DNA from: Basidiobolus ranarum
Taxonomy: Eukaryota
Reading direction: 5' to 3'
Length of the DNA stretch: 57,112 nucleotides
NCBI GenBank assembly: GCA_040143965.1
Contig: JASJQH010000011.1
Location: forward strand, 1 to 57,112
Shown piece after piece: positions 1 to 18,285 of this stretch (positions are counted from its first letter, which is position 1; each line of letters opens with the position of its first letter). Below the pieces are notes generated by a model that was not told where the DNA came from, made no database searches, and worked only from the letters and a program-made list of their open reading frames with translations. Position numbers and translations under genes: made by a program.

Positions 1-73
1 ATTCGGGCGGTTTGGTGGTTGGGGATCCGGTTGGAGCGATGACTGTGGTGGAGATGATTGTGGGGATTGTTGA
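1..73 (+). CDS. 3' end of secreted Gly/Arg/Phe-rich precursor, copy 1 (runs off the window start)
   Basis: Frame from base 2 reads FGRFGGWGSGWSDDCGGDDCGDC* (TGA 71-73), almost identical to the C-terminus of the 779-1474 gene. Confidence 0.85.
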   Translation, partial: FGRFGGWGSGWSDDCGGDDCGDC

Positions 74-778
74 TCAATATGCTTCGAAAATTTGAAATTC
101 TCCAATATCTCTCACAAATCTGTTTATACCAACTTTCACATCCTCATTACCCTCTTCCTAATGACTAGTCCAATAAAAAGATTATGTATAGAAGGTAATA
201 CTGCACTATTACGAAATCTTAGTACCAATAAATGTTTTGTTTCACAAGCAGAACCAAAAAAAATGAACAATAATAGTGCATTCTAAACTTATTGAATGTA
301 ACATGAAGCATGAAGGATGCAACCGGAATAAACCTATGATAGGTGCTAAAAGAACAAGAATGTTAGAAGGTTAGCAATACTACCGCTCACATAACATAGC
401 AACGCTATCATAATATTTACTTTGCTTTTAGAATTTGGCGATGTTACTGCGCAACACTGACAATTGCTTACTTATAAATGAGAAGATTATGATAGTATCT
501 ATTATTATTTGTAGCATATATATGAGCAAAATTACCCTCTACTCTGAATATATGAATATAATAGGCTACTAACATAAATGTATCTGGTTCCTAATAACAT
601 ATCTCATTTTTTAGACTCATATACATATATCAAGAGCAAATCTTTAATCTCCAGCAACGCTATTTTAAAACAACTACGTCATTCTTATGGCGAATTTACC
701 TGTATAAAACCACCAATTAAGATCCTATTTTTTGACAGTTTCGATTTGCCTTCCAACAAACCATTTACCATTACAAAG

Positions 779-1474
779 ATGTATCTCCAGATTGCTCTTA
801 TCAATACCTTGATATTTGCTTCCCTAACTAATGCATCTGATGCTCAACTAAATACACCTATTGCGAATGTTGCTTTAGCTACAGCTACTACTTTCCCGGC
901 AAGTGAGAACATGATGTTTGGAACTGACACTGATTTCTTCATTCCTGATCCCATATTGGATGAGGAGGTTGAGCTCACTCCCGAAGAATCCCAGTTGCAC
1001 CGTGTGAACCTTGGAAAAATACTTACTCGCCTGTCCGAGTCCACCCCTGGTAAGATAAAGAAACTCGATTCAACCAAGTTACATAAGCCTGGTAAACATG
1101 TAACTACAATGCATTCGGAATATGGTGAACAAAATGCAAATACTCCGGTCACTTCTGACAGCGTTGCCGTACCTAATGTTGCCTTCAGTGCAGATGATGA
1201 AGAAAATGCGGACTTAGATTCTTCTCCAGAAGAAACCGAGTTGCGACATGGAGGGCGTGGTGGCCGCGGAGGTCGAGGTAGACGTGGAGGTCGTAGAGAT
1301 CGTGGTCGGGGTCGCTTTGGAAGAGGGCGAGGACGCTTTGGTCGTGGCCGATTTGGAAGAGGTGGAAGGTTTGGTCGTTTTGGTGGTCGCAGATTTGGCA
1401 GATTCGGGCGGTTTGGTAGCTGGGGATCCGGATGGAACGATGATTGTGGTGGTGATGATTGCGGAGATTGCTAG
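779..1474 (+). CDS. Secreted precursor, copy 2 (231 aa): signal peptide, acidic pro-region, (GRF/RGG)n cationic domain, Trp/Asp/Cys tail
   Basis: ATG 779 (MYLQIALINTLIFASLTNA, hydrophobic signal-like) is the start conserved in the paralogues and follows a TATAAAA at ~702; intronless; ...SSPEETELR-HGGRGGRGG...GRFGRFGSWGSGWNDDCGGDDCGDC*. Confidence 0.9.
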   Translation: MYLQIALINTLIFASLTNASDAQLNTPIANVALATATTFPASENMMFGTDTDFFIPDPILDEEVELTPEESQLHRVNLGKILTRLSESTPGKIKKLDSTKLHKPGKHVTTMHSEYGEQNANTPVTSDSVAVPNVAFSADDEENADLDSSPEETELRHGGRGGRGGRGRRGGRRDRGRGRFGRGRGRFGRGRFGRGGRFGRFGGRRFGRFGRFGSWGSGWNDDCGGDDCGDC

Positions 1475-2206
1475 TCAACTAGCATCTGAAATGTTAAAAC
1501 TCTTAATGATTCCGGTAAATTTGTTTATACCAACTTTCACATTTTCATTACCTTCTTCCTATTGACCAACTCAATAAAAAAGCTCTATACAAGATGTATT
1601 ACTACACTATAGTGATTGTTGAATTTAAATATCAATACGTGTCTAGGAACAAAAACATTTACAACAGCAACTAATATTTAGTGAACCTGCAATAAGAACT
1701 AAAAAAGCAAAACGATTAGTAATATAACTACTTATTTACTAAAGTAATGCAGAGTTAATAAAGCTATAATGATATTTCATTGCCAAGAAACTTTTTTAGT
1801 GTTTGTAAGTATTCGCAGGTAATATATTCAGGGGTTTCAATAAATCATTCTTGACCATAGATTGTTGCAGCATGGCGATTTGCTAAATGAACCAACACTG
1901 GCAACTGTTTATATAAATCAATGTGATATTTATTCTCCTTGGTTGAATGTGTTGAAATCCCCTACTTTAACCACATTAATGTAACGGCCGCCAGACATGA
2001 ATTTACCGGCTCTATAATATCATACTTCATACGTTAAACTCACACCCCAGTATCAGCATCTAATGTTTAATTCTCTGAAAGGTTATTACAAAGCGGCTGG
2101 GTGCTTGATGTAACAAAATTAAATCTTGCCCATATAAAATGACCAAGTATGGCCTTATTCTCTGACATATTCGATTTATTTTTCAACAATTTTTCTCATT
2201 CCAAGC

Positions 2207-2894
2207 ATGTATCTACAAATTGCGCTTATCAACGCTATTCTGTTTGCCTCTCTAACTAACCCGGCTGATACTAAATCAAGCACACTCACTGAGCATGTTG
2301 CTCTAACCACTGCTGCGACCTTCCCAACAAGTGACGGCATGATGTTTGAGACAGATACCGACTTCCTCATTCCCAATTCCCTGTTGGATGAAGAGATCAA
2401 GCTCACTCTCGACGAATCCCAGTTACGTCGTGTTAACCTTGGAAAAATCTTAGCTCGCTTGTCTAAGTCTTCTCCAAATATGATAGAGAAATTCAGCTCA
2501 TAATTCTATAAAATTGGTAAACCTGTTGCTATGATGATTCTCGAAACTAGTGATCAAGATCCAAATGCTCCAGTCACTTCTAACAGCATTACTACGCCTG
2601 ATTCAGAAAAAGTTGAGGACACTGATGTTGACTACAGTGTGGATGACGCAAGAAATACGGATTTAGATACTTCTCCTGAAGAAACTGAGTTGCGACGTGG
2701 AGGGCGCAGTGGCCGCGGAGGTCAAGGACGTGGTCGCTTTGGTCGTGGCCGGAAGAGGTGAAAGGTTTGGTCGCTTCGGCGGTCGCAGATTGGGTAGGTT
2801 TGGCAGATTCGGGCGGTTTGGTGGTTGGGGATCTGGATGGAACGACGACTGTGGTGGAAATGATTGTGCTAATCAATACGCTTCCAAAATTTGA
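2207..2894 (+). pseudogene. Precursor copy 3, disrupted
   Basis: Same MYLQIALIN start and pro-region; in-frame TAA at 2501-2503; a 5-bp deletion near 2750 relative to copies 2/4 (GGCC[GATTT]GGAAGA) shifts the GRF repeat frame; the tail has lost the last Cys and the normal stop. Confidence 0.85.
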
Positions 2895-3261
2895 AATCCT
2901 TCAATATCTCTCACAAATCTGTTTATACCAACTTTCACAACCTCATTACCCTCTTCCTAATGACTATTCCAATAAAAAGATTATGTATAAGAGGTAATAC
3001 TACACTATTACGAAATCTTAGTATCAATATTTGTTTTGTTTCGCAAACAGAACCAAGAAAATTAACAATGATAGTGCATTCTAAACATACTGAATATAAC
3101 CGAAAGTATGAAGGATGTAACTTAAGATTATAAACCTATGACAAGCACTAACGGGACTATATAATCCAACACCTCTAAGAACCGTGCATGCTGAGATTCA
3201 TATCCTAACATACCAAGCTTTTGCAAATCTTCAAGAAAATGCTCCATAACTTTCCCACCCA

Positions 3262-3582
3262 TCATAGTATGCCAATGAGCTCGCACGGACGGCCTCGCGC
3301 AACAACCTGGCATCCTTTCTGCAGATATAATTCTTGTAAAAGACTGAGAAGTCTGCCATTGTCAAGAGCGACACCGGCTATGCCTTTTAGTGACAGCCAT
3401 TCAAGCAGTCTATGTCGTGGAGCTACATAATTTAATAACGTTTCACTTTCCTCGGCCTCCCTTGTGGCGGATAGGGTGCTCAGCTGCGCAGAGTTGGCCT
3501 TGGTGGTGCTTGTCTTGCGCGTGTTGGTCTTGGACGTGCTTTGTTCTGCTGCGCGTGCGGCCGATCGAGTGACAGGAGGCAT
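3262..3582 (-). pseudogene. Truncated gene fragment (MPPVTRSAARAAEQ...) at the left edge of the insertion
   Basis: GC-richer ORF with a basic, low-complexity N-terminus; runs into stops and the insertion junction; no family recognised. Confidence 0.35.
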
Positions 3583-3696
3583 GCCAGCGCTACTGTGCGG
3601 CTTGTAATTAGCCCCTTTCATAAATTACCATTTATTATGGACCGGACCACCTGACTTCCCGCCCCCTACCTTTTTCCTTACCTACCACCACCCAAT

Positions 3697-4230
3697 ATGC
3701 CCAAAAATACCAACAATAAAGAAGCCAATATCTAGAGGGCCCTAGATACACTCTGAGACCAAATAACCCCTAATATTTCCAGAACTGTGCGTGAATTCGC
3801 GGTTCCAAAGTCTACCCTTCTTCGCTGATAGAATGGTGGAAAATCGCTATTTAATCGATAACTAAACAATCAAAAGCTAGATATAGAGCAAGAGCAAGCT
3901 CTCTGTGCCTATATTGATCAGCTTGATACAGCTGGTATTCATATCAAACCAGCTCAAATTCAGAAATCTGCCAATTTTATTCTTTCTCTTGCATATATAG
4001 ACCCTACAAAACCACTACCTAAAATTGGTAAACACTAGGTTAAACGCTTCCTTTATTGATATCCTGAATATTAGCGGAGATAAAGAAGAGTTCTGGATAT
4101 TGAACGAAAACAAGCCCTGGACAAACGGACTATAGAAAAATGGTTTAATAAGTACAAAACTATAGTTATAGAGCAAGAAATTGATCTATGTGATATTTAC
4201 AATTTTGATGAGACTGGTTTTCGAATTGGT
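3697..4230 (+). mobile_element. Fot1/Pot2-type (pogo, Tc1/mariner superfamily) DDE transposase relic, N-terminal part only
   Basis: One frame from ATG 3697: HTH-like NISRTVREFAVPKSTL, CENP-B-like EQEQALCAYIDQLD...IGKH*VKRFL, ending in the family motif DIYNFDETGFRIG; nine in-frame stops, no frameshift. Confidence 0.9.
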
Positions 4231-4554
4231 CACGAAATTTGACAAAACACATTCAAACTTTTAATAATCAGATTTAGTTAGTAATTAATAGCTAATTAAT
4301 CATTAATTAATTATAGATAAGCTTTCTCAATATTATGCATATAAACTGGTTCGTGGAGTCGACCGTCTGGATCTCTCGAAATTAACTGGACATTTCGGTA
4401 TTGTTGCTCGTGTTTCGAAAGTGAGTCTGGTAGAAAACAAGAGAAAAATGAAAAGAACTAGCTCGATGTAGGTAATGAATAGCATTTGACAGAGAGAGGG
4501 AGGGGTGATATTTGGGATAAATTTACCAAATAAAAACGATCATCTGTTTGCGAT

Positions 4555-4720
4555 AACTGTTCGGGGGATCTGGGTCCGATTGACCGACCCCGACCGAATT
4601 CCCCTAATGCCTCAAATTCCCCGAATGCCCCGAATCTTCGGATAACATTTCCATATTGTTGAGATCGTCGGGGTCTGCTATAACGGGGTACAATGATACT
4701 CTACGTCCGAATACGTCCAG
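4555..4720 (+). promoter_or_regulatory. CCG/CGG-dense upstream region of the enoyl reductase (possible Zn(II)2Cys6 binding sites)
   Basis: Repeated CCGA/CCCCGA/TCGG/CGGA (e.g. GTCCGATTGACCGACCCCGACCGAATT, CCCCGAATGCCCCGAATCTTCGGATA), unlike the CpG-poor intergenic DNA elsewhere in the window. Confidence 0.45.
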
Positions 4721-4982
4721 ATTACCATGGAAAATCAGTGGAGAAATGAGTAGTCGCTAAATAAGCCTATAGTATTAACTAGCCATTGTATTTTTTTCGT
4801 AATATAATAGGCTAGGGCTGAGGGAACGATCTCGGCCTCTTTTGGACGCGAGGCCGTATTGCTGCTTACAAGTCTTCGTCTGCGGTGGGTAGCGTTACAC
4901 CGCAATTTATATATTTAGCTGTTCGGGTAACCCACTTCATCCATATCCAAAACATTCAACTTCTTTGAAAGATACCATCACT

Positions 4983-6035
4983 ATGCAAACAGCCACTCGT
5001 GCGATTTTCACCAACCAGAACGGCGAGCCGTATATTGGCACAGTCGACGAAACCTATGAGCCCCTTCCGACCGAGGTTCTTGTCAAGGTTGAGTTCTCCG
5101 GAATCAACCCCGCCGATCTCGGCCACGCCAGGATTGGATTCAACAACACTGTCGCCGGGTACGACTTCTCTGGAACCGTCATCAAAGCAGGCAGCGCCAA
5201 AAGTGGGCAGTTCAAACCCAATGATCGCGTTCTTGGATTTGCTGCGCCTCTTTTGGACAAGCCGAAGCAGTATGGCGCGCACCAAGAATTCCATTGCGCC
5301 AGGCATTTTGTCTACCACGTTCCCCCTTCTATGCCCATGGAAGATGCTGGTTGCCTCTTGGTTGTAACCCATACCGCTGCTGATGCTCTCTTCAATCGAC
5401 TCCAACTTTCCTTTGAAGACGAGTCCGAGCCTCTTTTGGTATGGGGTGGCTCAGGTGCTGTTGGAAGTGCCGCCATCCAACTCGCCAAAAAGGCAGGATG
5501 TTACCCAATCCTTGCCACCGCATCGCCTAAGAATCATGCAAAACTCTTAGAGATTGGTGCAACAGAGTGTTTTGATTACAATGACTGCGAGGTTGTGCAA
5601 AAAATTCAATCTGCTCTCAAGAAATACACCACTAAGCCGTTGAAGCGAGTATTGGATGCGGTCGTATCTCGCGGACAACCTTCTTCAACTAGCCTTTGCG
5701 AGTCTTGTGTCGAAGACTCAAGTGATGCTTTGTTCACTTCTCCAATCCCTGCTACGAGTGATGCAAAGAACCACTGGAGTCGTACCTTTGCCTGCAGAAA
5801 TGTTGACGTCGACTTCAGACTTCAGAACGGAACGCTATTCAGACACGCCCCTGATCAATCTATGCAAGCCAAAATCGATCAAGCTGCCAGCTGGGCTATT
5901 TCGAACTACGGGAATGGTTACTGCATGCCAAAAGTCGTGGTGGTGAAAGGTGGAGAGGATGGAGTGCGTGCCATACTTGATGTTTCTGCCGGAAAGGCCA
6001 GCATGCAGAAGTTTGTAATTGAGCATCCTATCTAA
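4983..6035 (+). CDS. MDR-superfamily NAD(P)H oxidoreductase, LovC-like trans-enoyl reductase (350 aa)
   Basis: EVLVKVEFSGINPAD, GYDFSGTV, GroES-like N-domain, Rossmann motif LLVWGGSGAVGSAAIQLAKKAG, ATASPKNH, FDYND; intronless, GC-richer than neighbouring genes; ATG 4983 preferred over the upstream TTG. Confidence 0.9.
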   Translation: MQTATRAIFTNQNGEPYIGTVDETYEPLPTEVLVKVEFSGINPADLGHARIGFNNTVAGYDFSGTVIKAGSAKSGQFKPNDRVLGFAAPLLDKPKQYGAHQEFHCARHFVYHVPPSMPMEDAGCLLVVTHTAADALFNRLQLSFEDESEPLLVWGGSGAVGSAAIQLAKKAGCYPILATASPKNHAKLLEIGATECFDYNDCEVVQKIQSALKKYTTKPLKRVLDAVVSRGQPSSTSLCESCVEDSSDALFTSPIPATSDAKNHWSRTFACRNVDVDFRLQNGTLFRHAPDQSMQAKIDQAASWAISNYGNGYCMPKVVVVKGGEDGVRAILDVSAGKASMQKFVIEHPI

Positions 6036-6510
6036 GAGCCTTTACATCACTAAGGTGCCCAGGTGGTGGATTTCTGAAAATTTATGTTCCTACCTCTGAC
6101 TATGCTTCCATGATTCTAAGGTTCTGTGCTTGTATTGTGTGTAAAGGTATATCTATCCGCACTCTTCGGAATGTTTCTTCTCTGCTTTGTTTAATCTACA
6201 TCATCTCGATTATGATTCCCAGCGGGAACTAGCATCATCCAATGATTTCTCCATAGTTCATACAGTTAATAGTATAGTTGTTATTAAATAAACTTTTGCC
6301 TTTTAACGCTCGAAATCATCAGCTTCGTTTGACTAAACTCCTGTAGTCCCCCAAAGGGCATTGTTTCGACCCCATCCACTCCCTTTAAAGTCTCTGTAAG
6401 GGCGCAGAGTTAGTGAAGAATGGATGATAGAGGGGTACAAATGACTGCCTCCTTACGTTCATCATGGGGCGGCATATTCCTGATATGAACTTGATCAAAA
6501 TCGAGATCTT

Positions 6511-7286
6511 TTGGTCCTTAATAACATTTATGACTACCTTCTTTGCCTATTCTTAGTAATCGGTAAGGAAAATCTAATAAGCATTCTAGCCACTACCTTA
6601 ACAAAACTATCACTAGAATATATTCCTAGAAGTATAAATAGATCTATAATTATAACAAGCCAGACCAAAGAGGTAGCATTAAAAATAGTTCACTATAATA
6701 ATTTTGTTAAGGTTAAGCATATGAAAAGCTATAAGGCGCTAGATCTTTTTTAAAAAAAACTTAATTAACCAGGGACCTTCCTTAACACATTCTACACGTA
6801 GTTTGTTTACATCTTGACAAAAGTATAAATGTCAATTTTCTACTCAATAAATCAATAAGTGAAAACCACCAATTTCTCTAATTCTCCAAACCACTTCCAA
6901 CAGGCTCCCAAATACTTTAACAGTTATTCAGTATTACAATATCTAAAAGACTTTCTAGGGGCAGAGCTTCTAAATAACTCTCGTGGTAGGGAAATGTCTG
7001 AATCTGATTCAGGCTCAGAGTTCAAAGATGATATTGTAATGCTAAGAGATTTTTCATTGATATCTATCAGTAAAAACAGTGCTTCATTTACAATGCATCA
7101 GGTAGTGCAACTGACTATGCGCGCATGGTTGAAATCGCATGGACAAATGAATACATGGCGGGAGAGATTCATTAGTACCCTGTATAACAAGCTCCCCACT
7201 GGTGAATTCCAAGGCGGAGACTCCAAACAAATTATTGATAGCACCTGGATGCTGGCAATAGCATATTCCCTGGAGGGCCGATGGAA
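6511..7286 (+). pseudogene. NB-ARC/TPR (fungal NLR, 'kinesin light chain'-type) relic interrupted by an LTR fragment
   Basis: LVLNNIYD (degenerate Walker B LILDNxDD), YIPRSINRSIIITSQTKEVALKIV (cf. YLPxSxxGSIIITTR), EFKDDIVMLRDFSLIS...FTMHQVVQLTMRAWLKSHG (MHxLVQ motif), and a TPR start MLAIAYSLEGRW; internal deletions. Confidence 0.75.
6769..6922 (+). mobile_element. Partial (3' ~154 bp) copy of the solo-LTR family
   Basis: Near-identical to ~17010-17164; ends CCCAAATACTTTAACA. Confidence 0.85.
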
Positions 7287-7645
7287 AGATGGTTAGCAAT
7301 ACTACCCATTCACATAGCATATTGAGGCAGAACTATTAACGCTATAATAACATTTACTTTACTTTAAGAGTTTGTTTGCATTAGTGCGCAACACTGACAA
7401 TTGCTTACTTATAATTGAGAATACTATGTAACAGTCTATTAAAAGAAATTTATTTGGTTCATATTACTATATCTCATGTGTTAGACTCATCCATATATCA
7501 AGAGCAAAAGTTTAATCTTCAGTAACGCTATTTTAAATTGACTGCGTCATTATTCTATCAAATTACCTGTATAAAACTACCAGTAATGCTCCTATTTTTT
7601 GACAGTTTCGATTTGCCTTCTAACAAACCATCTACCATTACAAAG

Positions 7646-8344
7646 ATGTATCTTCAAATTGCTCTTATCAATGCCTTGTTGCTTGCTTCTCTAACGAATG
7701 CATCTGACGTTCTAAATTCGCCTGTTGCCAATGTTGCTTTAGCTACAGCTACTACCTTCCCCGCAAGTGAGAGCATAATGCTTGGAACTGACACTGAATT
7801 CTTCATTCCCAATTCCATGTTGGATGAAGATGTCGAACTCACTCCCGAAGAATCGCAGATGCATCGTGTCAACCTTGGAAAGATACTTGCTCGCTTGTCT
7901 AAATCCTCTCCAGGCAATATAGGGAAATTTAGTTCAGTTGAGCTCCTTAAAACTGATAAACCTGTGACTAAGATGATTTCTGAAACTGGTGCCCAAGATA
8001 CAAATATTCCAGTCACCTCTGATAGCAACTTCGCACCTGCCTCAGGCAAAATTGAAAATGACGATATAGCCTACAGTGATGCTGATGAAACAAACACTAA
8101 TTTAGATGCTTCACCTGAAGAAACCGAGTTGCGACGTGGAGGGCGCGGTGGCCGCGGAGGTCGTGGAGTTCGGGGTCGTTTTGGACGAGGACGAAGACGC
8201 TTTGGTCGTGGCCGATTTGGAAGAGGTGGAAGGTTTGGTCGCTTCGGCGGTCGCAGATTTGGTAGGTTTGGCAGATTCGGACGGTTTGGTGGTTGGGGAT
8301 CCAGATGGAACGATAACTGTGTCGATGATTGTGAAAGTTGTTAA
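7646..8344 (+). CDS. Secreted precursor, copy 4 (232 aa)
   Basis: MYLQIALINALLLASLTNA...SPEETELRR-GGRGGRGGRGVRGRFGRGRRRFGRGRFGRGGRFGRFGGRRFGRFGRFGRFGGWGSRWNDNCVDDCESC*; upstream 7287-7645 is paralogous to 365-778. Confidence 0.9.
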   Translation: MYLQIALINALLLASLTNASDVLNSPVANVALATATTFPASESIMLGTDTEFFIPNSMLDEDVELTPEESQMHRVNLGKILARLSKSSPGNIGKFSSVELLKTDKPVTKMISETGAQDTNIPVTSDSNFAPASGKIENDDIAYSDADETNTNLDASPEETELRRGGRGGRGGRGVRGRFGRGRRRFGRGRFGRGGRFGRFGGRRFGRFGRFGRFGGWGSRWNDNCVDDCESC

Positions 8345-9572
8345 TCAGTTTGTACCACAAGTCTTGAATGCCTTGAATATTCCTGTGAAACCTTTTTATA
8401 GCAAGCATTTACATCTTTAGCACCTGCTTCCCTTTACTACTCCAATAAAGTCATTTTAAATGGAACTACAATGCGTGCGATCAGAATGCTTTAATACTTA
8501 TGATGCATTATGTACTTATGAAAATAAGCCTCCGTACCTGCTAGTAGTTATGTTGTCAATAAGCAGATCTTCTAACGGTGACCCTTGTCACTCTCTGATG
8601 GGAGAACTTGGCGGGGAGTATATATATATATATATTCTACATGAACCCCTGATCTAGCAGTGCAGCTTAGTATACTGAAATTAATGTCAATATATTAATC
8701 ATGGTAGTGATGGAAAGCCTCAAAACTGAAACAATACTGATAAAAATTTGAACTATTAAATGCAGAATTTACTTCACATTTTTAGTGCCAAATGATACGT
8801 AGTAGTAAGTAGCGAAAGAAACAAGAAATGTTTTAGAGGGTAGTGAGTACGGATCATTTAGGGTAATTAACAGAATTTTATAATTTGACACAATTTAAAT
8901 TCTGAATACCTGATATTAGTGAGACAGTTTCTAAAATGTCAGGCAATTGTGAGCACTAATACTTACCTTTGCCGGGTAATATATCTAAGAATAGTGGAAT
9001 TTGCATAATATAAATCCTAATGAACTCAATTCTAACAAATACTTACGTTTATATTGTGTAGAATAGAATCGTAGTAATTGAGGACAAAAAATCCAATTGA
9101 AAAATGACCTACAAGTATGTAGGGTATCTCTTCCTGTATTTCAATTCAAATGATCATTTTGGCATGGCTTAGTTGGTATTACTCAATAATTGTAGGCAGT
9201 CACTGTCAGTGATGTGTCAAGTCGCCATCAATATAGGTTTATTTTCATTTAATAAAATAGGCGGGGTGTTCATGTGTAAATTTTTATTAATATAAGATGT
9301 AGTCTACGAATCATGATGTTCAGAACCGTCAACATATAACAATATATTTAATGATTGCTTTATTATAGTAGATCGGCTTAATATACTGATTTCTCATTTC
9401 AAGAAGTTATAGATGCTATAATTTCTTTCAGCAAGATTAAAATAAAGTCAATGGTGATGCTAATTCTTGTGAGAAAACGGGCAGTTCAAGCTTTGAAGTA
9501 CACTTGATTTGTGAAGAACATGTAGTTAATGAAGTTTGTAAGCAACTATGTAATAATCTCATGTCTCTCCGG

Positions 9573-10634
9573 TTAATAAATCAATTTTGCAAGTTCTGCT
9601 GGTTGTAGTAAGATGATTAGTGGTCCTGCAAGTACAGATGCCTCTGTAGGAGCTCCTGATACATCAGATATGACCGCTAGAATGACTCCTTTGTTCTCAA
9701 AGTCTTTGGGAATCATCGAAGAATTGGTTTTTGTATCAAATGGCATGGAGATATTTAGTAGTCCGTGGAAGAATACTGCGTAATAATCCTTTCCCTCTTG
9801 AAAGTTGGGTACAAGGGATGGATTACGATACGAAAAGGTGATTGGCAGCTCTGGTGCTAATAACGTAGAGTTGGAGACGTATGAGAGCTGGGGTAGATGC
9901 TGGGATGGCTCGGGATATGTAGGATTCTCCTTAGGACAAGAACCAGGGACAATAAATTCATTGGTAACATCGAGAACTTGATTTGCATAGGGAAAGACAG
10001 TATCAGATGGTCCACCAAATGGATCAGCTTTCCAAATATCGATGAGGCCCCAAGTTTCGTGACGGGATTCAGTTTCCGCTATTGCTACTAGGACAGCCTT
10101 TGTAGTATTTGTTTGTGCTTGTAAAATGAGTCCAGTCAGAAATGCCATACTGGAGATCTCAATTATGGTACTCAACGCCAGAAATGAAGCTGCTGAAGTA
10201 AAGCCATAGTTATATTTGCACGCTCCAGGTTTCACTGAGTTACTAGAAATTTGATTTTGAAAAATACGTAAGTGACCTGCTTCATTGTTACGGATCTCTT
10301 GGATGCGAGAGTAGGTGGTGTTTGGCCATTCAGTAAAATTGGCAGCGGTGAATACCTCAACGCCTTGTTGATAGAAGGAGAATATGGCCCATTCTGCACT
10401 TAACAAGTTTTGGAATAGTAGATCGTCAGGTCCAGGGTTACCTTGACTTGTCGAAAGTATAGGAGCAGTATGGTTACCGGGGAAGGGAGGGGCTCTACCG
10501 TTGTAGCTGTTGTAAGATGAGCTTTCGCCTGGAATAGGACCGTAGCTAGGATCGCTGATATTTGTGGTGGGAAAGGCTTGCGAAGTAGAAAGCGTGAAGG
10601 CTAATGCAACGGCAATAGATATGGATGAGAACAT
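9573..10634 (-). CDS. Secreted ferritin-like domain protein (Rds1/Ferritin_2-like), 353 aa
   Basis: Signal peptide; LSAEWAIFSFYQQG, IRNNEAGH and IAETESRH give the E...ExxH...E...ExxH four-helix di-metal pattern; intronless. Confidence 0.8.
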   Translation of the reverse strand: MFSSISIAVALAFTLSTSQAFPTTNISDPSYGPIPGESSSYNSYNGRAPPFPGNHTAPILSTSQGNPGPDDLLFQNLLSAEWAIFSFYQQGVEVFTAANFTEWPNTTYSRIQEIRNNEAGHLRIFQNQISSNSVKPGACKYNYGFTSAASFLALSTIIEISSMAFLTGLILQAQTNTTKAVLVAIAETESRHETWGLIDIWKADPFGGPSDTVFPYANQVLDVTNEFIVPGSCPKENPTYPEPSQHLPQLSYVSNSTLLAPELPITFSYRNPSLVPNFQEGKDYYAVFFHGLLNISMPFDTKTNSSMIPKDFENKGVILAVISDVSGAPTEASVLAGPLIILLQPAELAKLIY

Positions 10635-11149
10635 TTTGGATATAGCTCAGAATCTTGACAACAAGACTTACTTATAGTGCACTTAACACCAGTGAAATAC
10701 CCAAGTAGATGCATGACAAGACTTGCTTAGAGATTGTAATGTTGAATTCTTGGCATCATCTACTATTAACCCAGGTGGATGAAATGTTTACCCGTGAGCG
10801 GAATGACTGTTTGTGAGCTAACTTGGATATGCCAGATTAGTGGATATCTGAATATTGGCATATTTCCACGCTGGCAACTATCCTAATTTCTAATGATCGC
10901 TCTCTTGCATAACATCACAATCACTAATTTGACTAAATAAGGTGTATGGAGTTTAATTTTACCTTCAGCATGCAAAAAAGGCACGTGTCCCAGAGGTCAC
11001 ACTGATCACTAATCCGATGGGCTAAGCACAAATGAGCAAGAGTCACCAATTAGATGACTATTTTTCCATGTAAATAATACACACCAACTAAATCGATAGG
11101 TTGAATAAGTGGCACCTTTAAGCATAAAGCAGTGGTGAAGAAAGCGCAT

Positions 11150-11990
11150 TTAGCTATAGCTACTTTCCTAACACGTGTAGGCTTCCAGAATCCACTATGT
11201 GACAAGAATTCTACTACTATAGTGATAGTCCATATAGTGGATGTATTTTCATTGTTTCTTTTAACTAGATCTACAGAGAAAATTAGATCAAATGATGGGT
11301 CTTATTTGTGTTAAAGTATTTGGAAGCCTGTTGGAAGTGGTTTGGAGAATGAGAGAAATTGGTGGTTTTCACTTATTGATTTATTGAGTATTCAGTTGAC
11401 ATTTATAGTTTTGTCAAGATGTAAGCAAACTTACTTGTAGAATGTGTTAAGGAAGGTCCCAGGAACATGTGTGCAAAGTTTGGGGCTCCTAGCACAAGTT
11501 TGAAAAATCTATATAGCTGAGAACTTCTAAGTTGGCATCAATATTCGAAGTAAATTCCTTATGAGAATAATGGGTAATATCTTAGTTCTATATAAGATAA
11601 CTAAGTACTAAGCTATATATGACTATATAGATGTTTAGGCAATGCTAATTTCAACAATTTGAAAGTAGCTATCATTTCCACGAACTAACAAACAGGCTTT
11701 ATGTGCAATTACTAAAAATAGTAGACAACTCTAATTAGTATTAAAAAGATAAGGCAGATCATCTATCTAAATCCTGATCTCAGGTGGGTTTGACATGCAC
11801 AATGAATTCAGGAAGGTAAGTATATCTATTCATTGGGAGTCAGCACTGGAACTGATAGCGGAATATATTTGTAATATTGATCCTAAAGCAACCATGATCC
11901 TAGAAAAAGCATTTGATTACACTGGAAGAAAATTCCCTTCAAATATACATGAAATGCTGTAAACTACCAAACATCCTTTTTACTTATGGA
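11150..11990 (+). pseudogene. Decayed paralogue of the downstream DJ-1/PfpI gene, split by a solo LTR
   Basis: 11150-11240 encodes LAIATFLTRVGFQNPLCDKNSTTIVIV vs LAMITLVTCVVGHNNPLGHNNSTTIGIV; ~11760-11875 (CCTGATCTCAGGTGGGTT...GGAGTCAGCACTGGAACTGATA) matches exon 2 at 13151-13250 with stops. Confidence 0.75.
11309..11656 (-). mobile_element. Solo LTR (348 bp), copia-like termini
   Basis: TGTTAAAG...TTTCAACA termini flanked by a perfect 5-bp duplication ATTTG (11304-11308 / 11657-11661). Confidence 0.9.
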
Positions 11991-12617
11991 GCAAACTTTG
12001 GTTCGCAGTTTTACATCGTAAGCTGAATAATAGACTATGGTCTATAATATGCTTTACTTATCAATTATGTATGTAGCTCAAATATGCAATGTAATAAAGC
12101 AATCCTAACAATGTAAAACCTAATCTAGTGTACCGAACATAGAAAATGGCCAATTCTGGGCCTAAAAATAGCAAAAGGAGTCATATATGCAATAGGATGC
12201 ATGTGCGAACTATTTACTCACACAGGCAATAATGTGACTTCTACTCTGCGGATGATAGTTAAAAATTAGTAATGGTAGGGAGCATAGTGTAGGGGGCATA
12301 TATTGATAGACATTACTGCTTATTTCATCAGCGGCCCATCGTGATGGAAGGACAACCTTAATAAAGGGTAAGAATGTAATTAGATAATTTGCTGATAATA
12401 ATAATAATAGTGATAATGAGCCAAAAAGGAAAGTATATAGTCACACGTTTTGCAAGTTGTTTACTTGGTAGAAGTCAAGATAGAAACTAATTGCATTAGT
12501 ATACAGTAATTAGCCCACTTGGACGCCTATGTCTCAACTGTCACTAGAAGATACTTATAAATCTTATAAGAACAACTGCACCAAAAGGAGGCCATACTAT
12601 ACTTTGAACACAACGCA

Positions 12618-13392
12618 ATGCTTTTGAAAATCACTCTAGCAATGATCACCTTGGTAACTTGTGTAGTGGGTCACAACAATCCACTGGGCCATAATAATTC
12701 TACTACCATTGGGATAGTTCTATATCCAGGATTTGAGGAACTGGATGTATTTGGACCTCGAGCTATTCTTTCTTTTAACAAAACTTACTTGATTACCGAG
12801 AAACCTGGTATCGTTGAATCACGTACTGGAGCACAATTGAAGGTGGACTATCATTTCCAAAATCATCCTCAGTTTGACGTCCTCATGATACCCGGCGGTA
12901 TCGTAAAGCAACAACTTACGAATCCGGTCATAATACAGTTCATTGAAGAACAGGCAAAAAAGGCCCAGATAGTTTTAACTGTATGTACTGGAAGTGCTCT
13001 CCTAGCGAAAACTGGACTACTTGATGGGTTGAAAGCAACCACTAACAAAATGGTTTGGTCTTCAGTTACCTCGAGATGTATGTTAATTAGTAAATATGTT
13101 AAGATATAGAATGCAAGCCATAGAAATAATCATGAATTTTATTTATCTAGTTCCTGAAGTCAAGTGGGTTAGGCATGCAAGATGGGCTCAAGATGGGAAA
13201 TATATCTCATCATCTGGAGTCAGTGCTGGAACTGATATGGCGACATATTTCGTCCAAAAGTATCTCGGTGAAGAAATACTTCATATAAGACTTAACTTTA
13301 CAGAATACATCTGGAACAGTGACTCCAACAATGACCCATATACTTTTGCTGAAATGGATTTTCCACCCGATACCCTTTCATACATTATTTAA
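12618..13392 (+). CDS. DJ-1/PfpI (ThiJ/InhA-like) protein with signal peptide; 2 exons, intron 13078-13150
   Basis: GIVLYPGFEELDVFGP, DVLMIPGG, nucleophile elbow VCTGSALLAKTGLLDG, ATTNK; GT..AG splice restores SRFPEVKWVRHARWAQDGKYISSSGVSAGTDM. Confidence 0.9.
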
Positions 13393-13589
13393 TTTATTTC
13401 AATAAACACTGCCTTTCGCTACATTGTACCACCTTCTCTGACGAAAATCTCGTTAATAAAGAAAGAAGCAATGCTAGCCAGTAAAGAGGAAGCTCTTTAT
13501 ATATAAATTTTTTATAGATGGATACATGTATACGAGATTATCAACACTATATGAAGATATAGTTTTCATAGTATCGATCTATTGCACAA

Positions 13590-15266
13590 TTAGCTTGTTG
13601 GTTGATAACCGTGTTCGGCAGCAATCTCGTCCATAGAACGACCCTTGGTTTCGGGAACAAGGAAGTAAATAAAAGTAAGAGCAACTCCGTTGGTTACTGC
13701 AAATATAATGAAAGATCTAGCTCCAAGGGAAGTGATTAACGTTGGGAATACCAGCACTATAATCGAGTAACAGCTTAAACAAATGGCATCAATACAAACT
13801 CTAACTTCAATAAGAATCGATCACATTATACTAACGCCCAATTTACGGCCGTTGCGGCCGAGACCACGATACCTGCCGCCCAAGTCGGAACTAGCTCGGC
13901 GATGATCATAAATGGAATGGTTGCCGACCCAATACTGAAGCTGGATGTGTAGAGGAAGACTATAAAATAATGTTAACGCGTGTCCTAGAAAGGTAAAGTA
14001 ATAAATCTCACCAGCTATTGTATTTAAAATCACGTTATTAATAACATCTCCCACTATAAGTAGAATACATGATACTAGCATTCCTCCAGTACTAAGTAAT
14101 AGTAAAGGACGACGTCCACTTCTATCAATTAACATTGAAGAGCATAGATTAAGCAGGACATTGAGTGCCGCAATGCAGATAGTCATATAAGGTGCAAGCT
14201 GGGAACCTAAGGTTTGTCTGAACATCGTCGTGGAATAGAGAGTTACTCCGTTAACTCCTGATAGTTGTTGGGAGACGTGCAGTCCTATTCCAACAAAAAG
14301 CATTTTTCGAACATATCTATCGCTCATTACCGCTTTGATCTGATCCCCTAAAGATGCACCCTTAAGCCTACCCGATGAATGTACATCATCACATTTAGTG
14401 CTTGTAAGCATATCCTTGAATTCATGCTCGATATAGCACCCTCTTCGGAGTTTCTGTAGGGATTCTCTAGCGTCAGATACTTTTTCTTTCGATAAGAGAT
14501 ATCTAGGTGTTTCGGGGCAGAGAGTAAGAAGCGATACCTGAAGAATGGCAAACCCAATTGTCATAGCAAATAAGACCCTCCATAACGGCACTGTAGCAAG
14601 ACCAAGTCCAGTAAGCTGGGAAATTAAAATTCCTAAAGCGATGGAAACTTGTAGTAACGTTCCCATGGCCCCACGATACCTAATAGTTGAAGTTTCAGCA
14701 ATATAGATGGGCCCAACTACGGTGGATGTACCACTACCAAGACCAATAAGAAATCGGCCTATTGCAAACATGGCAGTATGAGCTGACAACCCAATCAAGA
14801 GCCCACCAAAGATGAAATTTAGATTGTTGTACACAAGCGTTGTCTTTCTGCCCAATCGATCGGCTATAGGACCAGCAATGAGCCCACCTATCAATCCCCC
14901 AATTTGCATGATTGCAACGTTGAAGCCCCTTGATCCGTTTGTGGATGACATTAATAAGTAGGAATATATATATTAACGAATTGAGACCCTTTACCAGAGT
15001 AAGTCACCCATAGGTAGACAGGCTGGAAATGGCCCTGAGCGAATGTCTGTACATTCTCGAACCACCTTTTCTGCGATATTCGGAGATCCAGTATTCCACC
15101 CTTTGTTGAATGAAGCCATGGTGACTACCAAAACAGATAGAAAAACCACAGGAGTCATGCCCTTCTCTCGTGAATCGAGGATGCTATCACTTGTACTCGA
15201 AATCTCCAAGTCTCGCTTGGAGACATCGGAAGAGGTTTTTTCGTTCTGGATGGACTGGGAAGACAT
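13590..15266 (-). CDS. MFS sugar porter (GLUT-like), multi-exon
   Basis: GWNTG, ADRLGRK, GRFLIGLG, PIYIAE, PETPRYL, QQLSGVN, DRSGRR, VPETKG motifs; first intron 14994-14929, two more short introns near the 3' end; stop TAA 13592-13590. Confidence 0.92.
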
Positions 15267-16815
15267 TGGTTGTACTTTACAATTGCTGGGTAGCTCTTAT
15301 ATAGTTCTTCTCTACAATGACATAATGTGTTACCCTCATAATACAGCGTTTATCTGAATCAGTTAACAACGGTTATAGGGAAGAGTTCTCGAAGAAAGTT
15401 AATCCTGTGCGAACAAGAGGCTTGTCCATATGAACGGGGGTACAGAGCCAATTGCTTGTACAATAATCAACTGTTGACTTAATGCGTTGTAATATTAAGT
15501 ATGAATTCCCCACGCTAATAACTGCTATCTACGGCACATGATAATCCATTTGGATGTATTGCTAATGAAACCACTCTGACTCCAACCACACCCTTTATGG
15601 AAGAATTGTACTGTCTGTATTTGTCTTCGATGTAACTAGCAGTAGCATCTATAAGTCGGAAAATCAGTTTTAGATAGTTCTCTACGTCAGAAGGCGGTGA
15701 TATCTTATGGGTTCGGGAGAATGTTGTACCGAGTTCTAAATACCTATGAGTTGTAGCGATCGTTCTTGAAGAATCTAAACATAGTATCTTGTCATCTGAC
15801 ATATAATAGGATCTATTAGCAATGGTATCGGAGTATCACATTTGAGCCAACAACTTGCTTTAGTCAGCGAAGGAAAACAAATCTGAACAAAAGGATTACT
15901 ATATACTAACGATTGGATGCAGCTGACAGAGAAGCTAAATTTGACTTAATCAGAATCTAAATAATAACCTTTGATATTACGAATCTACTACTCTTTGTCA
16001 CGTACATTTGTATTCATTACATTTAGTGAATTCGCTTTGAGCTCAATATTTTTTTGCGCTGAAGTTGTTGATTCTCCGATATCTTTCTAAACATTATATT
16101 CAGAAAATTCAAACTTATGATACTATGCCTTTGCCATTTTTGTTGCGTGTTTTATGTAAATATTCTTTGCCTACACTAAGCATGGAATATTGATGAGTAT
16201 GCCAGAATTTCTGATTAGTAGATTTATCTGTATAGACAACTATTACATACTTCTTAAATATAATAATAATGATGTTTGTCAGTATCCCAGCCATCCAAAG
16301 TGCTTCCTGGATTCATTCACATGGTTTACTCTATGTGCATGAAAAACATGACAGGATTTGAGATAAAAATGGTAACAAACCTGTGGTGTTTCCCTTATGT
16401 TTCCCTTAGGTTATGTTAATTTCAACCATAACCATGTTTTGGTTGAAATATCAGAATTAAGCACTTAACTACTCAAGCATCTTATTTAGCATAGTCCATA
16501 TTTCAAAAGTGAAAGTTATCATATATATTTAGGATTTAATAAAATTATCTTAAACACTTCCGATTCATCTCAAATACTGGCAACAGTTTGGAGGTTATAT
16601 TCTACCACCTGTAATGACAAAGAAAGCCAAAAAATCATTACTTGCAAAAAATTATTTACAAAAATGTGAGGCCAAAATTGATTCACTGTACTATGAATAC
16701 AAATATATATATCATAAGTGTTAAAGTATTTGGAGTAGTGGGATCCCTATCTCAGCATCAAAAACTGTTATTTGGTCTTTGATGGTAGGCTATGTGACAA
16801 ATATCAAGTTGGATC

Positions 16816-17164
16816 TGTTGAAATTAGCATTGCCTAAACACCTATATAGTCATATATAGCTTAGTACTTAGTTATCTTATAGCTTACTAAGATATTATCA
16901 ATTATTCTCAATTGGAATTTACTTGGAATATTTTTACCAACTTAGAAGTTCTCAGATATATGAATTTTTTCAAACTTGTGCTAGAAGCCCCAAACTTTGC
17001 ACACATGTTCCTGGGACCTTCCTTAACACATTCTACATGTTAGCTTGTTTACATTTTGACAAGACTATAAATGTCAACTTTCTACTCAATAAATCAATAA
17101 GTGAAAACCACCAATTCCTCTAATTCTCCAAATCACTTCCAACAGGTTCCCAAATACTTTAACA
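16816..17164 (+). mobile_element. Solo LTR (349 bp)
   Basis: TGTTGAAA...TTTAACA; flanks GGATC / GAATC (5-bp TSD, one mismatch); internal TATATA and AATAAA suggest this is the sense orientation. Confidence 0.88.
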
Positions 17165-17283
17165 GAATCATGAAGCCAATGTAGAGATATTGTGACTTGA
17201 AAAATATATGCAAAAAGATGAATTAGTTATGAGCGCTAGTGAATTTGAAGGCAGTAAATTAGACAATACCTGAGCACTGGATG

Positions 17284-17612
17284 TGTTAAAGTACTTGGGA
17301 GCCTGTTGGAAGTGGTTTGGAGAATTAGAGAAACTGGTGGTTTTCACTTATTGATTTATTGAGTATTCAGTTGACATTCATACTTTTGTTAAGATGTAAA
17401 CAAACTAACGTGTAGAATGTGCTAAGAAAGGTCACAGGAACATGTGTGCAAAGTTTGGGGCTTCTAGCACAAGTTATCAAAATCTATATATCTTCAAACT
17501 TCGAAGTAAATTCCTCATGAGAATGATGGATAATATCTTAGTTCATTATAAGATAACTAAGTACTAAGCTATATATGACTATATAGGTGTTTAGGCAATG
17601 CTAATTTCAACA
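17284..17612 (-). mobile_element. Solo LTR (329 bp, small internal deletion)
   Basis: TGTTAAAG...TTTCAACA with perfect TSD GGATG (17279-17283 / 17613-17617). Confidence 0.9.
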
Positions 17613-18285
17613 GGATGTTCTTTGAACGGGACTTGACTCACTAGATTGGGTTGTCATTGAGATTATCTAACTATTATCAAAATATGCAACTAGGCATGAT
17701 ATGTAGTAGGTATATATTGTACTCAACATTGTTTTGGGGTGATAGTTTCAAACTTCTGAAATAGAAAGAATATAAAGTGAACTACTACCTTTTGCTACAC
17801 TTGTGGACTTCACTACTGATGTCTTCTGTGAGCACTAGTTAAACGTAGAGAACGAAAATATTACTTCTAACACCTGGATAGAAAGGCACAATAACACTGT
17901 TATTAGTGTTAGTACTTTTATCACTATTGGTATTCCATTGACTATCGCTATCCGGTGTGAAATCCAAATCACATCACTCCGACGACCCTTATTCTACAAC
18001 GACTATGATAAGCATTGCTTTAATCACCACTTGAGGGTAAATAGGACTTTGCTAGCCGATAGTGTTTCACTTTCTCACTATTCCCACTGTTTGTCACAAC
18101 GTATTTGTAGCACCTTAAAACAATGAATTAAATGTGAATTCTTTCCATTACTAGAAAGTATACAGTTAAATGGAAAGTCAAATTGTGTAGCCATTAGGAT
18201 GTTATTTTTTCCATTTTTGATCTTTGAACAAATGAAGGATGGTGAACCAATAATAGGCATTTTATTTTATTATCATTAAACGGGT

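Follow-up and report, generated by a model that had tools for sequence, protein, structure and literature searches.

Insertion site and host context

The window analyzed here is a contig of 57,112 bp in which, at the assembly level, about 4.13 kb of DNA (3158-7286) splits a spacer in a tandem array of genes for secreted peptides. Judging from the ORF list and repeat families D1 to D10, array gene A (779-1474, plus strand) encodes a secreted Arg/Gly/Phe-rich peptide precursor, for which no Pfam family was found; the ORF list and repeat families also delimit unit B (2138-2900, plus strand), a decayed copy in three frames, and gene C (7646-8344, plus strand). The interrupted spacer is AT-rich and lies between two genes of this array. 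The NAT10 protein encoded on this contig shows 100% identity to a protein named Basidiobolus ranarum and 91% identity to that of Basidiobolus meristosporus, but only 67% identity to that of Penicillium manginii. By NAT10 identity the host is B. ranarum (Zoopagomycota), and the preliminary description was correct in assigning the DNA around the insertion to an early-diverging fungus. The inserted block is tied to native genes in the assembly, sharing a contig with B. ranarum NAT10 and having two halves of one spacer as its flanks.

The paralogous spacer A (65-577) provides an empty site, with the insertion point at about 340-364. In local alignments, spacer A 65-339 matches 2862-3141 on the left and spacer A 365-504 matches 7287-7441 on the right; in the repeat search, identity was 91% for the left flank (195 nt) and 81% for the right flank (104 nt). 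The two parts of the interrupted spacer, as aligned to spacer A, are thus 2862-3157 and 7287-7525. Homology of the left flank is solid to 3141 and then weak (10 of 16 bases) up to 3157, so the left edge of the block, which was drawn from local alignments and content, is uncertain within 3142-3158. Depending on that edge, the spacer lost 9 to 25 bp (spacer A 356-364 or 340-364, respectively) and gained 4129 to 4145 bp. The block had been placed at 3152-7286, with about 15 bp (about 350-364) replaced, which is right within a few bases. A third spacer (1469-2137), more diverged, is likewise uninterrupted at the insertion point, so that the claimed paralogous empty site is represented twice.

No direct or inverted word of at least 7 nt is common to 3130-3229 and 7220-7319 (shuffled sequences gave a mean of 1.25 7-mers), and there is therefore neither a target site duplication nor a terminal inverted repeat, as had been noted at first inspection. 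Both ends of the block fall within genes, and the fragments at the left and right junctions are cut off, also as described previously. The small target deletion and the lack of a target duplication fit the earlier suggestion of capture at a break.

Left fragment, transposase relic, and upstream region

The left junction cuts a GC-rich gene fragment (3158-3624, minus strand; 49% GC), recognized from ORFs and composition as two overlapping frames, 3262-3624 and 3128-3361. Its codon usage (GC3, 0.50) has an RSCU correlation with the host of -0.12. No Pfam match was found for it even at an E value of 5, and the Atlas row to which it leads (score, 0.90), in which 13% of members carry Phage_int_SAM_1, is a lead only. 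This fragment and a 155-nt host repeat fragment farther right (6769-6923) had been overlooked in the preliminary description.

The next feature is a pogo/Fot1-type transposase relic (3697-4230, plus strand), which confirms the previous identification of a Fot1-type relic. Its translation contains a CENP-B/Tc5-type HTH domain (HTH_Tnp_Tc5; E value, 2.5e-8; 34.2 bits against a cutoff of 22.2). Of the transposase gene, just the first 178 codons are left, interrupted by 9 in-frame stops; a tenth stop (4240-4242) closes the translated stretch 3697-4242. Its best relatives are 50% identical and carry DDE_1 at about residues 200 to 370. By tblastn, no transposase homology was found past 4230 (codon 178), and the DDE domain is absent after the DETGF motif. 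Because DDE_1 is absent and the block ends lack terminal inverted repeats, this copy is a relic.

The presence of the transposase relic raises the question of whether the block arrived as cargo of a pogo/Fot1 element or of part of a Pezizomycotina giant element of the Starship type. Starships typically carry patchy accessory genes and NLR genes, and the block holds one of each, namely, the reductase, a patchy accessory gene in Penicillium and Aspergillus, and the receptor relic described below. However, the transposase is a stop-ridden stump without a catalytic domain, the block has no terminal inverted repeats or target duplication, and the truncated genes at its ends suggest that these do not match an element boundary. 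Transposon-borne arrival is, on these grounds, highly improbable. A Starship element as such was rejected because no Pfam match to a tyrosine-recombinase captain (DUF3435) was found in the block ORFs and both block ends lie inside genes.

Between the relic and the reductase gene, composition distinguishes an AT-rich filler and, after it, a stretch rich in CGG/CCG (together 4231-4982), the latter being the presumed donor promoter. The combined density of CGG and CCG is 29.5 per kb in 4441-4982 and rises to 49.8 per kb in 4500-4720, compared with 10.1 in 8400-57112, and the CGG-rich stretch reported upstream of the reductase is thus borne out.

An intact reductase gene of Aspergillaceae affinity

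An intact, intronless gene (4983-6035, plus strand) encodes an enoyl/quinone reductase of the MDR superfamily of 350 amino acids, as established by Pfam, homology, and trees. Both of its domains pass the Pfam cutoffs (ADH_N, 32.9 bits against 23.5; ADH_zinc_N, 38.2 bits against 31.8). It is 86% identical to its homologue in Penicillium odoratum over 100% of its length, the 350-amino-acid orthologues being fully covered, and across four Penicillium species the identities are 86, 83, 81, and 76%. In both the quick tree (59 rows) and the careful tree (33 rows), the reductase falls in an eight-row clade made up of the window sequence, four Penicillium rows, and three Aspergillus rows, with an SH-aLRT support of 100 in the former and UFBoot and SH-aLRT supports of 100 each in the latter. 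Its end branch is 0.09, compared with 0.065 to 0.33 for the seven other rows of the clade, and it departs from only 2 of 94 columns that are invariant in 11 orthologues. No Basidiobolus name occurs in the best 120 of 123 matches, although the collection does include B. meristosporus proteins; the only early-diverging fungus named among these 120 matches is Bifiguratus, at 29% identity. A metagenome scan with peptides of the reductase gave no match. Its GC3 of 0.51, against 0.32 to 0.42 in eleven host ORFs, agrees with its earlier characterization as GC richer. We also observed that the reductase is patchily distributed among Penicillium and Aspergillus.

Vertical inheritance would mean that an old region survived in Basidiobolus and Aspergillaceae but disappeared from other lineages. 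All that can be said for this reading is that the reductase family is patchy in general. It is already contradicted by the identity of the reductase to its Penicillium homologue across phyla (86%), which exceeds that of the far more conserved NAT10 (67%), by the fully supported position inside a Penicillium/Aspergillus clade (100/100), and by the paralogous spacers that lack the block, and we give it hardly any chance. The phylogeny thus favors the foreign-DNA reading, for which nesting of the reductase inside Pezizomycotina had been proposed as a check.

The reductase had also been called LovC-like. This holds at the level of the MDR superfamily only, the fold family that it has in common with LovC, CcsC, FsdC, and ToxD-like reductases, but the first two PDB matches are quinone oxidoreductases, with LovC third and fourth (E values, 3.4e-13 and 5e-13). 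The relatives named fsdC, ccsC, and toxD are 34 to 35% identical among the matches listed. Unlike LovC, CcsC, and FsdC, the block reductase has no polyketide synthase partner in the block or its flanks: no PKS or PKS-NRPS gene was found beside it, every other gene in the block is broken, and the flanks consist of peptide-array genes. The assignment as a LovC-type trans-acting enoyl reductase was rejected because neither a partner highly reducing PKS nor a PKS-NRPS is adjacent. The only intact cargo is a putative NAD(P)H-dependent MDR reductase gene together with the region upstream of it, and the rest of the block appears to be dead passenger DNA. Either the reductase gene would have arrived very recently or selection would have maintained it.

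Receptor relic and embedded host repeat

A relic of a fungal NLR-type receptor gene (NB-ARC/DUF7779/TPR) spans 6490-7299. Its NB-ARC part (6490-6768, plus strand; 28% GC), which contains stops, aligns by tblastn at 47 to 49% identity to about residues 150 to 255 of NB-ARC-bearing Penicillium homologues only. No Pfam family was found in 6484-6750, and an NB-ARC domain with a P-loop was not recognized there; the receptor's N-terminal 170 residues gave a single 16-residue match (E value, 4.4). The DUF7779 and first TPR part (6925-7286, plus strand), assigned by homology, scores 20.8 bits for DUF7779, below the cutoff of 27, and yet is 59 to 64% identical to the same region of Penicillium proteins that have the NB-ARC/DUF7779/TPR arrangement. 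It has lost 65 internal residues at 7212/7213, keeps only 29 residues of the TPR region, and is cut by the right junction at about residue 536 of 945. Fourteen of the 17 receptor matches are from Penicillium and one is from Aspergillus, with identities up to 64%. These alignments uphold the NB-ARC/TPR relic proposed earlier and, as the second homology check of that proposal, give the receptor the same affinity as the reductase. Aspergillaceae affinity is therefore found in two separate parts of the block, the reductase and the receptor relic, and an origin given before as ascomycete-like is placed more narrowly in Aspergillaceae by the reductase clade and the receptor matches.

The two parts of the receptor relic are separated by the 5'-truncated host repeat fragment of 155 nt (6769-6923, plus strand), which is about 93% identical to three host copies at 17010-17165 (plus strand), 11463-11309 (minus strand), and 17433-17284 (minus strand). 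It stands in place of about 36 codons and is bordered on both sides by one and the same relic, with order and frame kept. In the host, the repeat forms the two arms, of about 196 nt each, of a foldback element (16973-17475; 80% self-complementary over 519 nt) and a solo arm (11306-11507, minus strand; 92% over 202 nt). Because the host copies have 45 further common bases that are missing from the block copy, the repeat moved from the host to the block. A metagenome scan with the repeat core gave no match, so that the evidence for a host origin of the repeat is its three copies in this window.

This host repeat inside the block argues against contamination or chimeric assembly. Such an artefact, in which contaminating DNA of a Penicillium-like mould was stitched into a Basidiobolus contig, has to be considered, since the block is highly identical to a common laboratory and environmental mould genus and lies in a repeat array, 3 kb from a contig end that itself breaks inside the repeated array. 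However, an assembler would have had to exit and re-enter within 9 to 25 bp of one spacer, and there was nothing to mislead the assembly graph, because by blastn the block shares only the repeat with the rest of the window. A diverged and truncated host repeat copy flanked by the receptor relic is not expected in a contaminant genome. We consider an assembly artefact quite improbable.

The embedded repeat also bears on the possibility that an older Aspergillaceae insert resided elsewhere in the genome, where it acquired the host repeat and its deletions, and that a 4.1-kb segment of it was later copied here by templated break repair, in which case the junctions would be secondary. The mosaic nature of the block (65 residues missing at 7212/7213, no receptor N terminus, and a transposase that ends at codon 178), the host repeat fragment within it, and its two truncated ends without mobile-element ends would all suit such a history. 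Against this, no second copy was found in this window, the deletions could equally have been made in the donor, and the reductase bears no trace of long neutral residence, departing from two of the 94 invariant columns and having an end branch in the range of its orthologues. We regard an older insert as unlikely.

Directional decay of the relics

Decay was scored in columns where one residue clearly predominates among the homologues, and GC-to-AT and AT-to-GC transitions were counted. The NB-ARC relic has 18 GC-to-AT against 3 AT-to-GC transitions, the DUF7779 relic 10 against 3, and the transposase relic 12 against 0. The reductase, with 3 against 7, has no GC-to-AT bias, unlike the relics. 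Six of the nine aligned stops in the transposase relic are a single C-to-T or G-to-A change away from Q, R, or W, and 30 of 40 inferred changes are in a CpA or CpG context (CpA, 20; CpG, 10; CpT, 7; CpC, 3). Directional C:G-to-T:A transitions are thus confined to the relics, with the reductase spared, as expected of repeat-induced point mutation (RIP). At the usual thresholds, the dinucleotide indices are positive in only one relic, that of NB-ARC, which is short (TpA/ApT, 1.28; substrate index, 0.90), and negative in the transposase relic (TpA/ApT, 0.91; substrate index, 1.30). Decay is patchy as in RIP rather than uniform, since the left fragment remains at 49% GC. This repeat-specific pattern is that expected of RIP in an ascomycete donor, which we infer to be its cause. 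Some of the GC-to-AT decay may postdate the transfer, because the host genome is also AT rich.

Origin of the block

The reading that we prefer, at a probability of roughly three in four, is a transfer of raw genomic DNA from a member of the Aspergillaceae to Basidiobolus with integration by end-joining repair. The donor would have been a Penicillium-like member of the Aspergillaceae, and the DNA a contiguous chromosomal piece in which a single-copy reductase gene stood in an accessory region, flanked by a pogo/Fot1 copy on one side and an NLR-type receptor paralogue on the other, these two having been wrecked beforehand by RIP and deletions. Basidiobolus would have taken up at least 4.1 kb of this DNA, with its two ends broken at arbitrary positions, each within a gene. 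Reptile and amphibian guts are among the habitats common to both fungi. Penicillium is named among the genera that dominate herptile gut mycobiomes with Basidiobolus in the part of PMC10964425 considered here. Non-homologous or microhomology-mediated end joining would then have placed the fragment in a double-strand break, with 9 to 25 bp lost and no duplication, and at or after integration about 108 nt of the receptor relic would have given way to a fragment of the host foldback repeat. How the DNA was taken up, how the break was repaired, and any role of the reductase in the host are inferences.

Comparison with known transfers

HGT between fungi of the Dikarya is known from ToxA, secondary-metabolite clusters, and Starship-mediated transfers in Penicillium and Aspergillus. 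As in those cases, the gene is nested in the donor clade, has an identity beyond the distance between the species, and is a patchy accessory gene in the donor group. In contrast to them, the recipient here belongs to another phylum, being a zygomycete-grade member of the Zoopagomycota; the fragment is short, with broken genes instead of element ends at its limits; RIP-like-scarred dead donor DNA is included; and a paralogous empty site shows the preinsertion state. Filler DNA captured at double-strand breaks by end joining, as in NUMTs and T-DNA-like insertions, offers a parallel for the lack of target duplication, the small target deletion, the arbitrary break points, and the mosaic content. 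The filler here, however, is the DNA of another species, neither organellar nor from the own genome.

Basidiobolus has acquired bacterial secondary-metabolite genes by HGT (Tabima et al. 2020, PMC7466969). The recipient genus and the proposed gut setting are those considered here, and the acquired genes, in the portion of that study drawn on here, are intron poor with a GC content unlike that of native genes, as is the block reductase; the donor there is bacterial, unlike here. In the scheme as set out in that portion, a fungal donor would go unscored, because "fungal origin" is the native class.

It is possible, and we offer this tentatively, that Basidiobolus takes up and fixes raw DNA of ascomycete moulds with which it has a gut and dung habitat in common, that the reductase is expressed and selected, and that the RIP scars are a donor fingerprint in a lineage without RIP. 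If so, the block would be a transfer caught in the act, RIP-scarred passenger DNA could serve as a general forensic marker of transfer from Dikarya to early-diverging fungi, and the known bacterial HGT in Basidiobolus would be just one aspect of a wider receptiveness of the genus to foreign DNA.

A peptide gene array and its interrupted spacer

The window consists of one complete contig (57,112 bp). An array of tandem units, repeating about every 1.4 kb, fills its first 8.4 kb and encodes secreted Arg/Gly/Phe-rich peptide precursors. It includes the end of one unit (1-70), gene A (779-1474), a decayed unit B (2138-2900), and gene C (7646-8344); because the contig start falls inside a unit, the array probably extends past it. 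In each product, a signal peptide leads into an acidic central region, an extended RGG/RFG repeat tail follows, and the end is rich in Cys and Asp (e.g., ...GRFGRFGSWGSGWNDDCGGDDCGDC). The proteins look like cationic-peptide precursors, and none of those in 1-8344 matched a Pfam family.

One spacer of this array is interrupted by the block. Its alignment to the paralogous, uninterrupted spacer A (65-577) runs through 2862-3141 and is taken up again at 7287-7441, with identities in a repeat search of 91% over 195 nt on the left and 81% over 104 nt on the right. Past 3141, weaker spacer similarity continues up to 3157 (10 of 16 bases). The spacer has lost 9 to 25 bp (340 or 356 to 364 in spacer A) and carries approximately 4.13 kb in their place, best written as 3158-7286. 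A further spacer, 1469-2137, is more diverged and also runs through the insertion point without a break. These alignments locate the block and both junctions within a few bases of where the preliminary description had placed them. That description had also noted no obvious TSD or terminal repeat, and no word of at least 7 nt was common to the 100 nt around each junction, in direct or inverted orientation (shuffle mean, 1.25).

The surrounding DNA, with a GC content of 37 to 40%, had been attributed to an early-diverging fungus. This agrees with the intron-free NAT10/Kre33 ORF (41398-44403), the product of which is 100% identical to a Basidiobolus ranarum protein, 91% to that of B. meristosporus, 72 to 75% to those of Glomeromycotina and Mucoromycota, and 67% to that of Penicillium manginii. 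Elsewhere in the host part, a 262-amino-acid ORF (51453-52241, minus strand) begins like a signal peptide, carries a Cys-containing motif (...YLGRCxxC...) in three internal copies, and matches no Pfam family. A 373-amino-acid ORF very rich in Gln, Pro, and Ser (21135-22256, minus strand) shows little correlation in codon usage with the rest of the host genes (RSCU r = 0.27), for which its low-complexity composition is probably responsible.

Gene remnants within the block

The left junction cuts a GC-rich (49%) gene fragment with two overlapping frames (3158-3624, minus strand). Neither frame matched a Pfam family even at an E value of 5. The first gave only weak Atlas leads (score, 0.89 to 0.91), with Phage_int_SAM_1 in 13% of the members of one row and QRICH1 in 60% of those of another, and its Atlas model was poor (pLDDT, 0.41); for the second frame, Atlas relatives were absent.

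The next feature, described beforehand as a Fot1-type transposase relic, indeed derives from a pogo/Fot1-type transposase, of which it retains the first 178 codons, interrupted by nine in-frame stops (3697-4230, plus strand), a tenth stop ending the translated stretch 3697-4242. It matched HTH_Tnp_Tc5 (E value, 2.5e-8) and had 1,284 matches at an E value of 0.001 or better among 1.84 billion representatives, the best at 50% identity. Three full-length relatives contain both HTH_Tnp_Tc5 and DDE_1; in the relic, no homology to the transposase was found beyond the DETGF motif or after 4230. A weak tblastn match to the helix-turn-helix region of one pogo-like transposase representative (27% identity over 82 residues; E value, 2.8e-4) was also seen far outside the block at 52543-52776 (minus strand), possibly the remains of an old host transposon or else a CENP-B-like gene.

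AT-rich filler and then a CGG/CCG-rich stretch occupy 4231-4982. In the latter, CGG and CCG together reach 29.5 per kb, with a peak of 49.8 per kb in 4500-4720, versus 10.1 per kb in the host part, so the enrichment reported for a "CGG-rich promoter" is real, and its role as a promoter is putative.

At the right end, the anticipated NB-ARC/TPR relic proved to be a single NB-ARC/DUF7779/TPR receptor broken into three pieces that keep their order and reading frame (6490-6768, 6925-7212, and 7213-7299) and correspond to about residues 150 to 255, 355 to 443, and 508 to 536 of Penicillium homologues. A deletion at 7212/7213 removed 65 residues, and the remainder was lost at the right junction; the N terminus is considered absent because 5900-6600 gave only one 16-residue match, at an E value of 4.4. 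The genes at both ends, the left fragment and the receptor relic, are therefore each cut by a junction, as had been proposed. Searches for Rfam families in 2800-7600 and a tRNA scan of 1-20000 returned nothing.

The reductase and the donor lineage

The reductase gene (4983-6035) is the block's only intact cargo. This uninterrupted 350-codon ORF matches ADH_N and ADH_zinc_N above the Pfam cutoffs and fits its earlier description as intact, intronless, and GC richer, with a GC content of 50% and a GC3 of 0.51 compared with 0.32 to 0.42 in eleven host ORFs. The GC3 above the host range suggests little amelioration. Among solved structures, its best relatives are quinone oxidoreductases, and LovC matched at an E value of 5e-13; fsdC, ccsC, and toxD are among the named proteins related to it at about 35% identity. 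The label "LovC-like" is valid at the superfamily level and no closer, since the block lacks a synthase partner.

A protein search returned 123 matches at an E value of 0.001 or better. Identities were 86% to Penicillium odoratum, 83% to P. vulpinum, 81% to P. lagena, 77% to Aspergillus saccharolyticus, 76% to P. longicatenatum, and 72% to A. unguis. Among the best 120 of the 123 matches, which were inspected, none was named Basidiobolus, and the only early-diverging fungus was Bifiguratus (29%). A metagenome scan with the reductase gave 71 pattern matches and no relatives. A value of 86% to Penicillium across two phyla, against 67% for NAT10, rules out vertical descent of the reductase.

In a quick IQ-TREE analysis of 59 rows, the reductase fell in an eight-row clade (SH-aLRT, 100) that was recovered in a careful tree of 33 rows (UFBoot, 100; SH-aLRT, 100). 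The other seven members are four Penicillium and three Aspergillus sequences. Stepping out to the next starred clades, of 12 and 18 rows, brings in no sequences besides those of Penicillium and Aspergillus and some without an organism name; the Pezizomycotina-like character ascribed to the block is thus upheld by phylogenetic nesting. The terminal branch of the reductase is 0.09, with 0.065 to 0.33 for the other seven, and it differs at 2 of the 94 columns invariant in 11 orthologues, where P. odoratum, P. vulpinum, P. lagena, and P. longicatenatum each differ at 1 to 3. By branch length and invariant columns, it behaves like any other orthologue from the Aspergillaceae and gives no hint of relaxed constraint. 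The family is patchy within the Aspergillaceae, and Aspergillus and Penicillium rows are intermixed in the tree, A. saccharolyticus sitting among Penicillium at 82 to 85% identity; this is a pattern that may reflect movement of the gene between species within the family as well.

The receptor relic provides evidence of origin independent of the reductase. Its fragment 6925-7293 had 17 matches at up to 64% identity: 14 Penicillium, 1 Aspergillus, and 2 without an organism name. Together, the two genes support a donor within the Aspergillaceae and, at the level of sequence, the interpretation of the block as foreign DNA in B. ranarum.

Directional decay of the relics

The direction of change was scored by comparing each codon of the window with the majority residue of the homologues and keeping differences that a single base change explains. 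We adopted these counts because classical indices of repeat-induced point mutation (RIP) were not decisive, being passed by the 285-nt NB-ARC relic only. GC-to-AT versus AT-to-GC transitions numbered 18 and 3 in the NB-ARC relic, 10 and 3 in the DUF7779 relic, and 12 and 0 in the transposase relic, versus 3 and 7 in the reductase. In the transposase relic, a single C-to-T or G-to-A change from a Q, R, or W codon accounts for six of the nine aligned stops, and the context of the inferred changes was CpA in 20 of 40 and CpG in 10 of 40. The left fragment and the reductase are still at 49% and 50% GC. Strongly directional decay, limited to sequences that are multicopy in ascomycetes (a transposon and an NLR paralogue) and sparing adjacent unique DNA, is the pattern of RIP. 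Since RIP is known from the Dikarya, we infer that the relics were damaged in the donor, before transfer; the AT bias of the host could account for some of the GC-to-AT change.

Evidence for integration

Within the receptor relic, 6769-6923 stands in for about 36 codons, the relic continuing on both sides, and is approximately 93% identical to 17010-17165, 11463-11309, and 17433-17284. These three host copies lie in intergenic DNA. Two are arms of a foldback element (16973-17475), which is 80% self-complementary over 519 nt and whose arms measure about 196 nt each, and the third belongs to a solo arm (11306-11507) of 92% identity; together they make up a small host repeat family. The three share 45 further bases missing from the block copy, so the fragment in the block derives from this family of the host. 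The 31-nt invariant core of the repeat had no exact match in a metagenome collection.

A contaminant joined to host sequence during assembly would also bring Aspergillaceae-like genes into the contig; its genome would not contain this repeat fragment. Host sequence resumes 9 to 25 bp from where it stopped, in the same spacer, and in blastn the block had no sequence in common with the rest of the window except the host repeat, leaving nothing to mislead the assembly graph. On this sequence structure, we put the probability that the block is truly integrated in the host genome at roughly 90%, and the spacer is likely the primary integration site.

Mechanism and implications

The small target loss, the lack of a duplication, and break points within genes would fit end-joining repair of a double-strand break, with a piece of broken donor chromosome ligated in. 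The host repeat would have entered the block later than, or concurrently with, integration. Penicillium and Basidiobolus are listed in one study among the genera dominating herptile gut mycobiomes (PMC10964425), a co-dominance that would offer opportunity for transfer.

Inter-fungal HGT is well known, and claims of it mostly rest on gene trees alone. The block adds the site, untouched paralogues, and both junctions, as well as noncoding and dead donor DNA beyond any selection argument and a donor-type mutational scar, which together make the case unusually checkable. Its unusual feature is how much of the event is legible: empty site, junctions, scarred passenger DNA, and host repeat.

HGT from bacteria to Basidiobolus has been reported (PMC7466969; preprint 10.1101/2025.03.31.646025); in contrast to those bacterial donors, that of the block would be an ascomycete. 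In passages on HGT, the 2020 Basidiobolus study (PMC7466969) set its candidates against "genes of fungal origin," which served as the native reference, so that fungal donors would have been overlooked. Among the papers listed by full-text literature searching, no title or start of an abstract described an ascomycete-to-Basidiobolus transfer; the supplementary HGT candidate tables of Tabima et al. might list the reductase gene. If the interpretation is true, the list of donors to Basidiobolus would grow from bacteria to ascomycete fungi, and the block would be a concrete case of an early-diverging fungus capturing foreign eukaryotic DNA through end joining.
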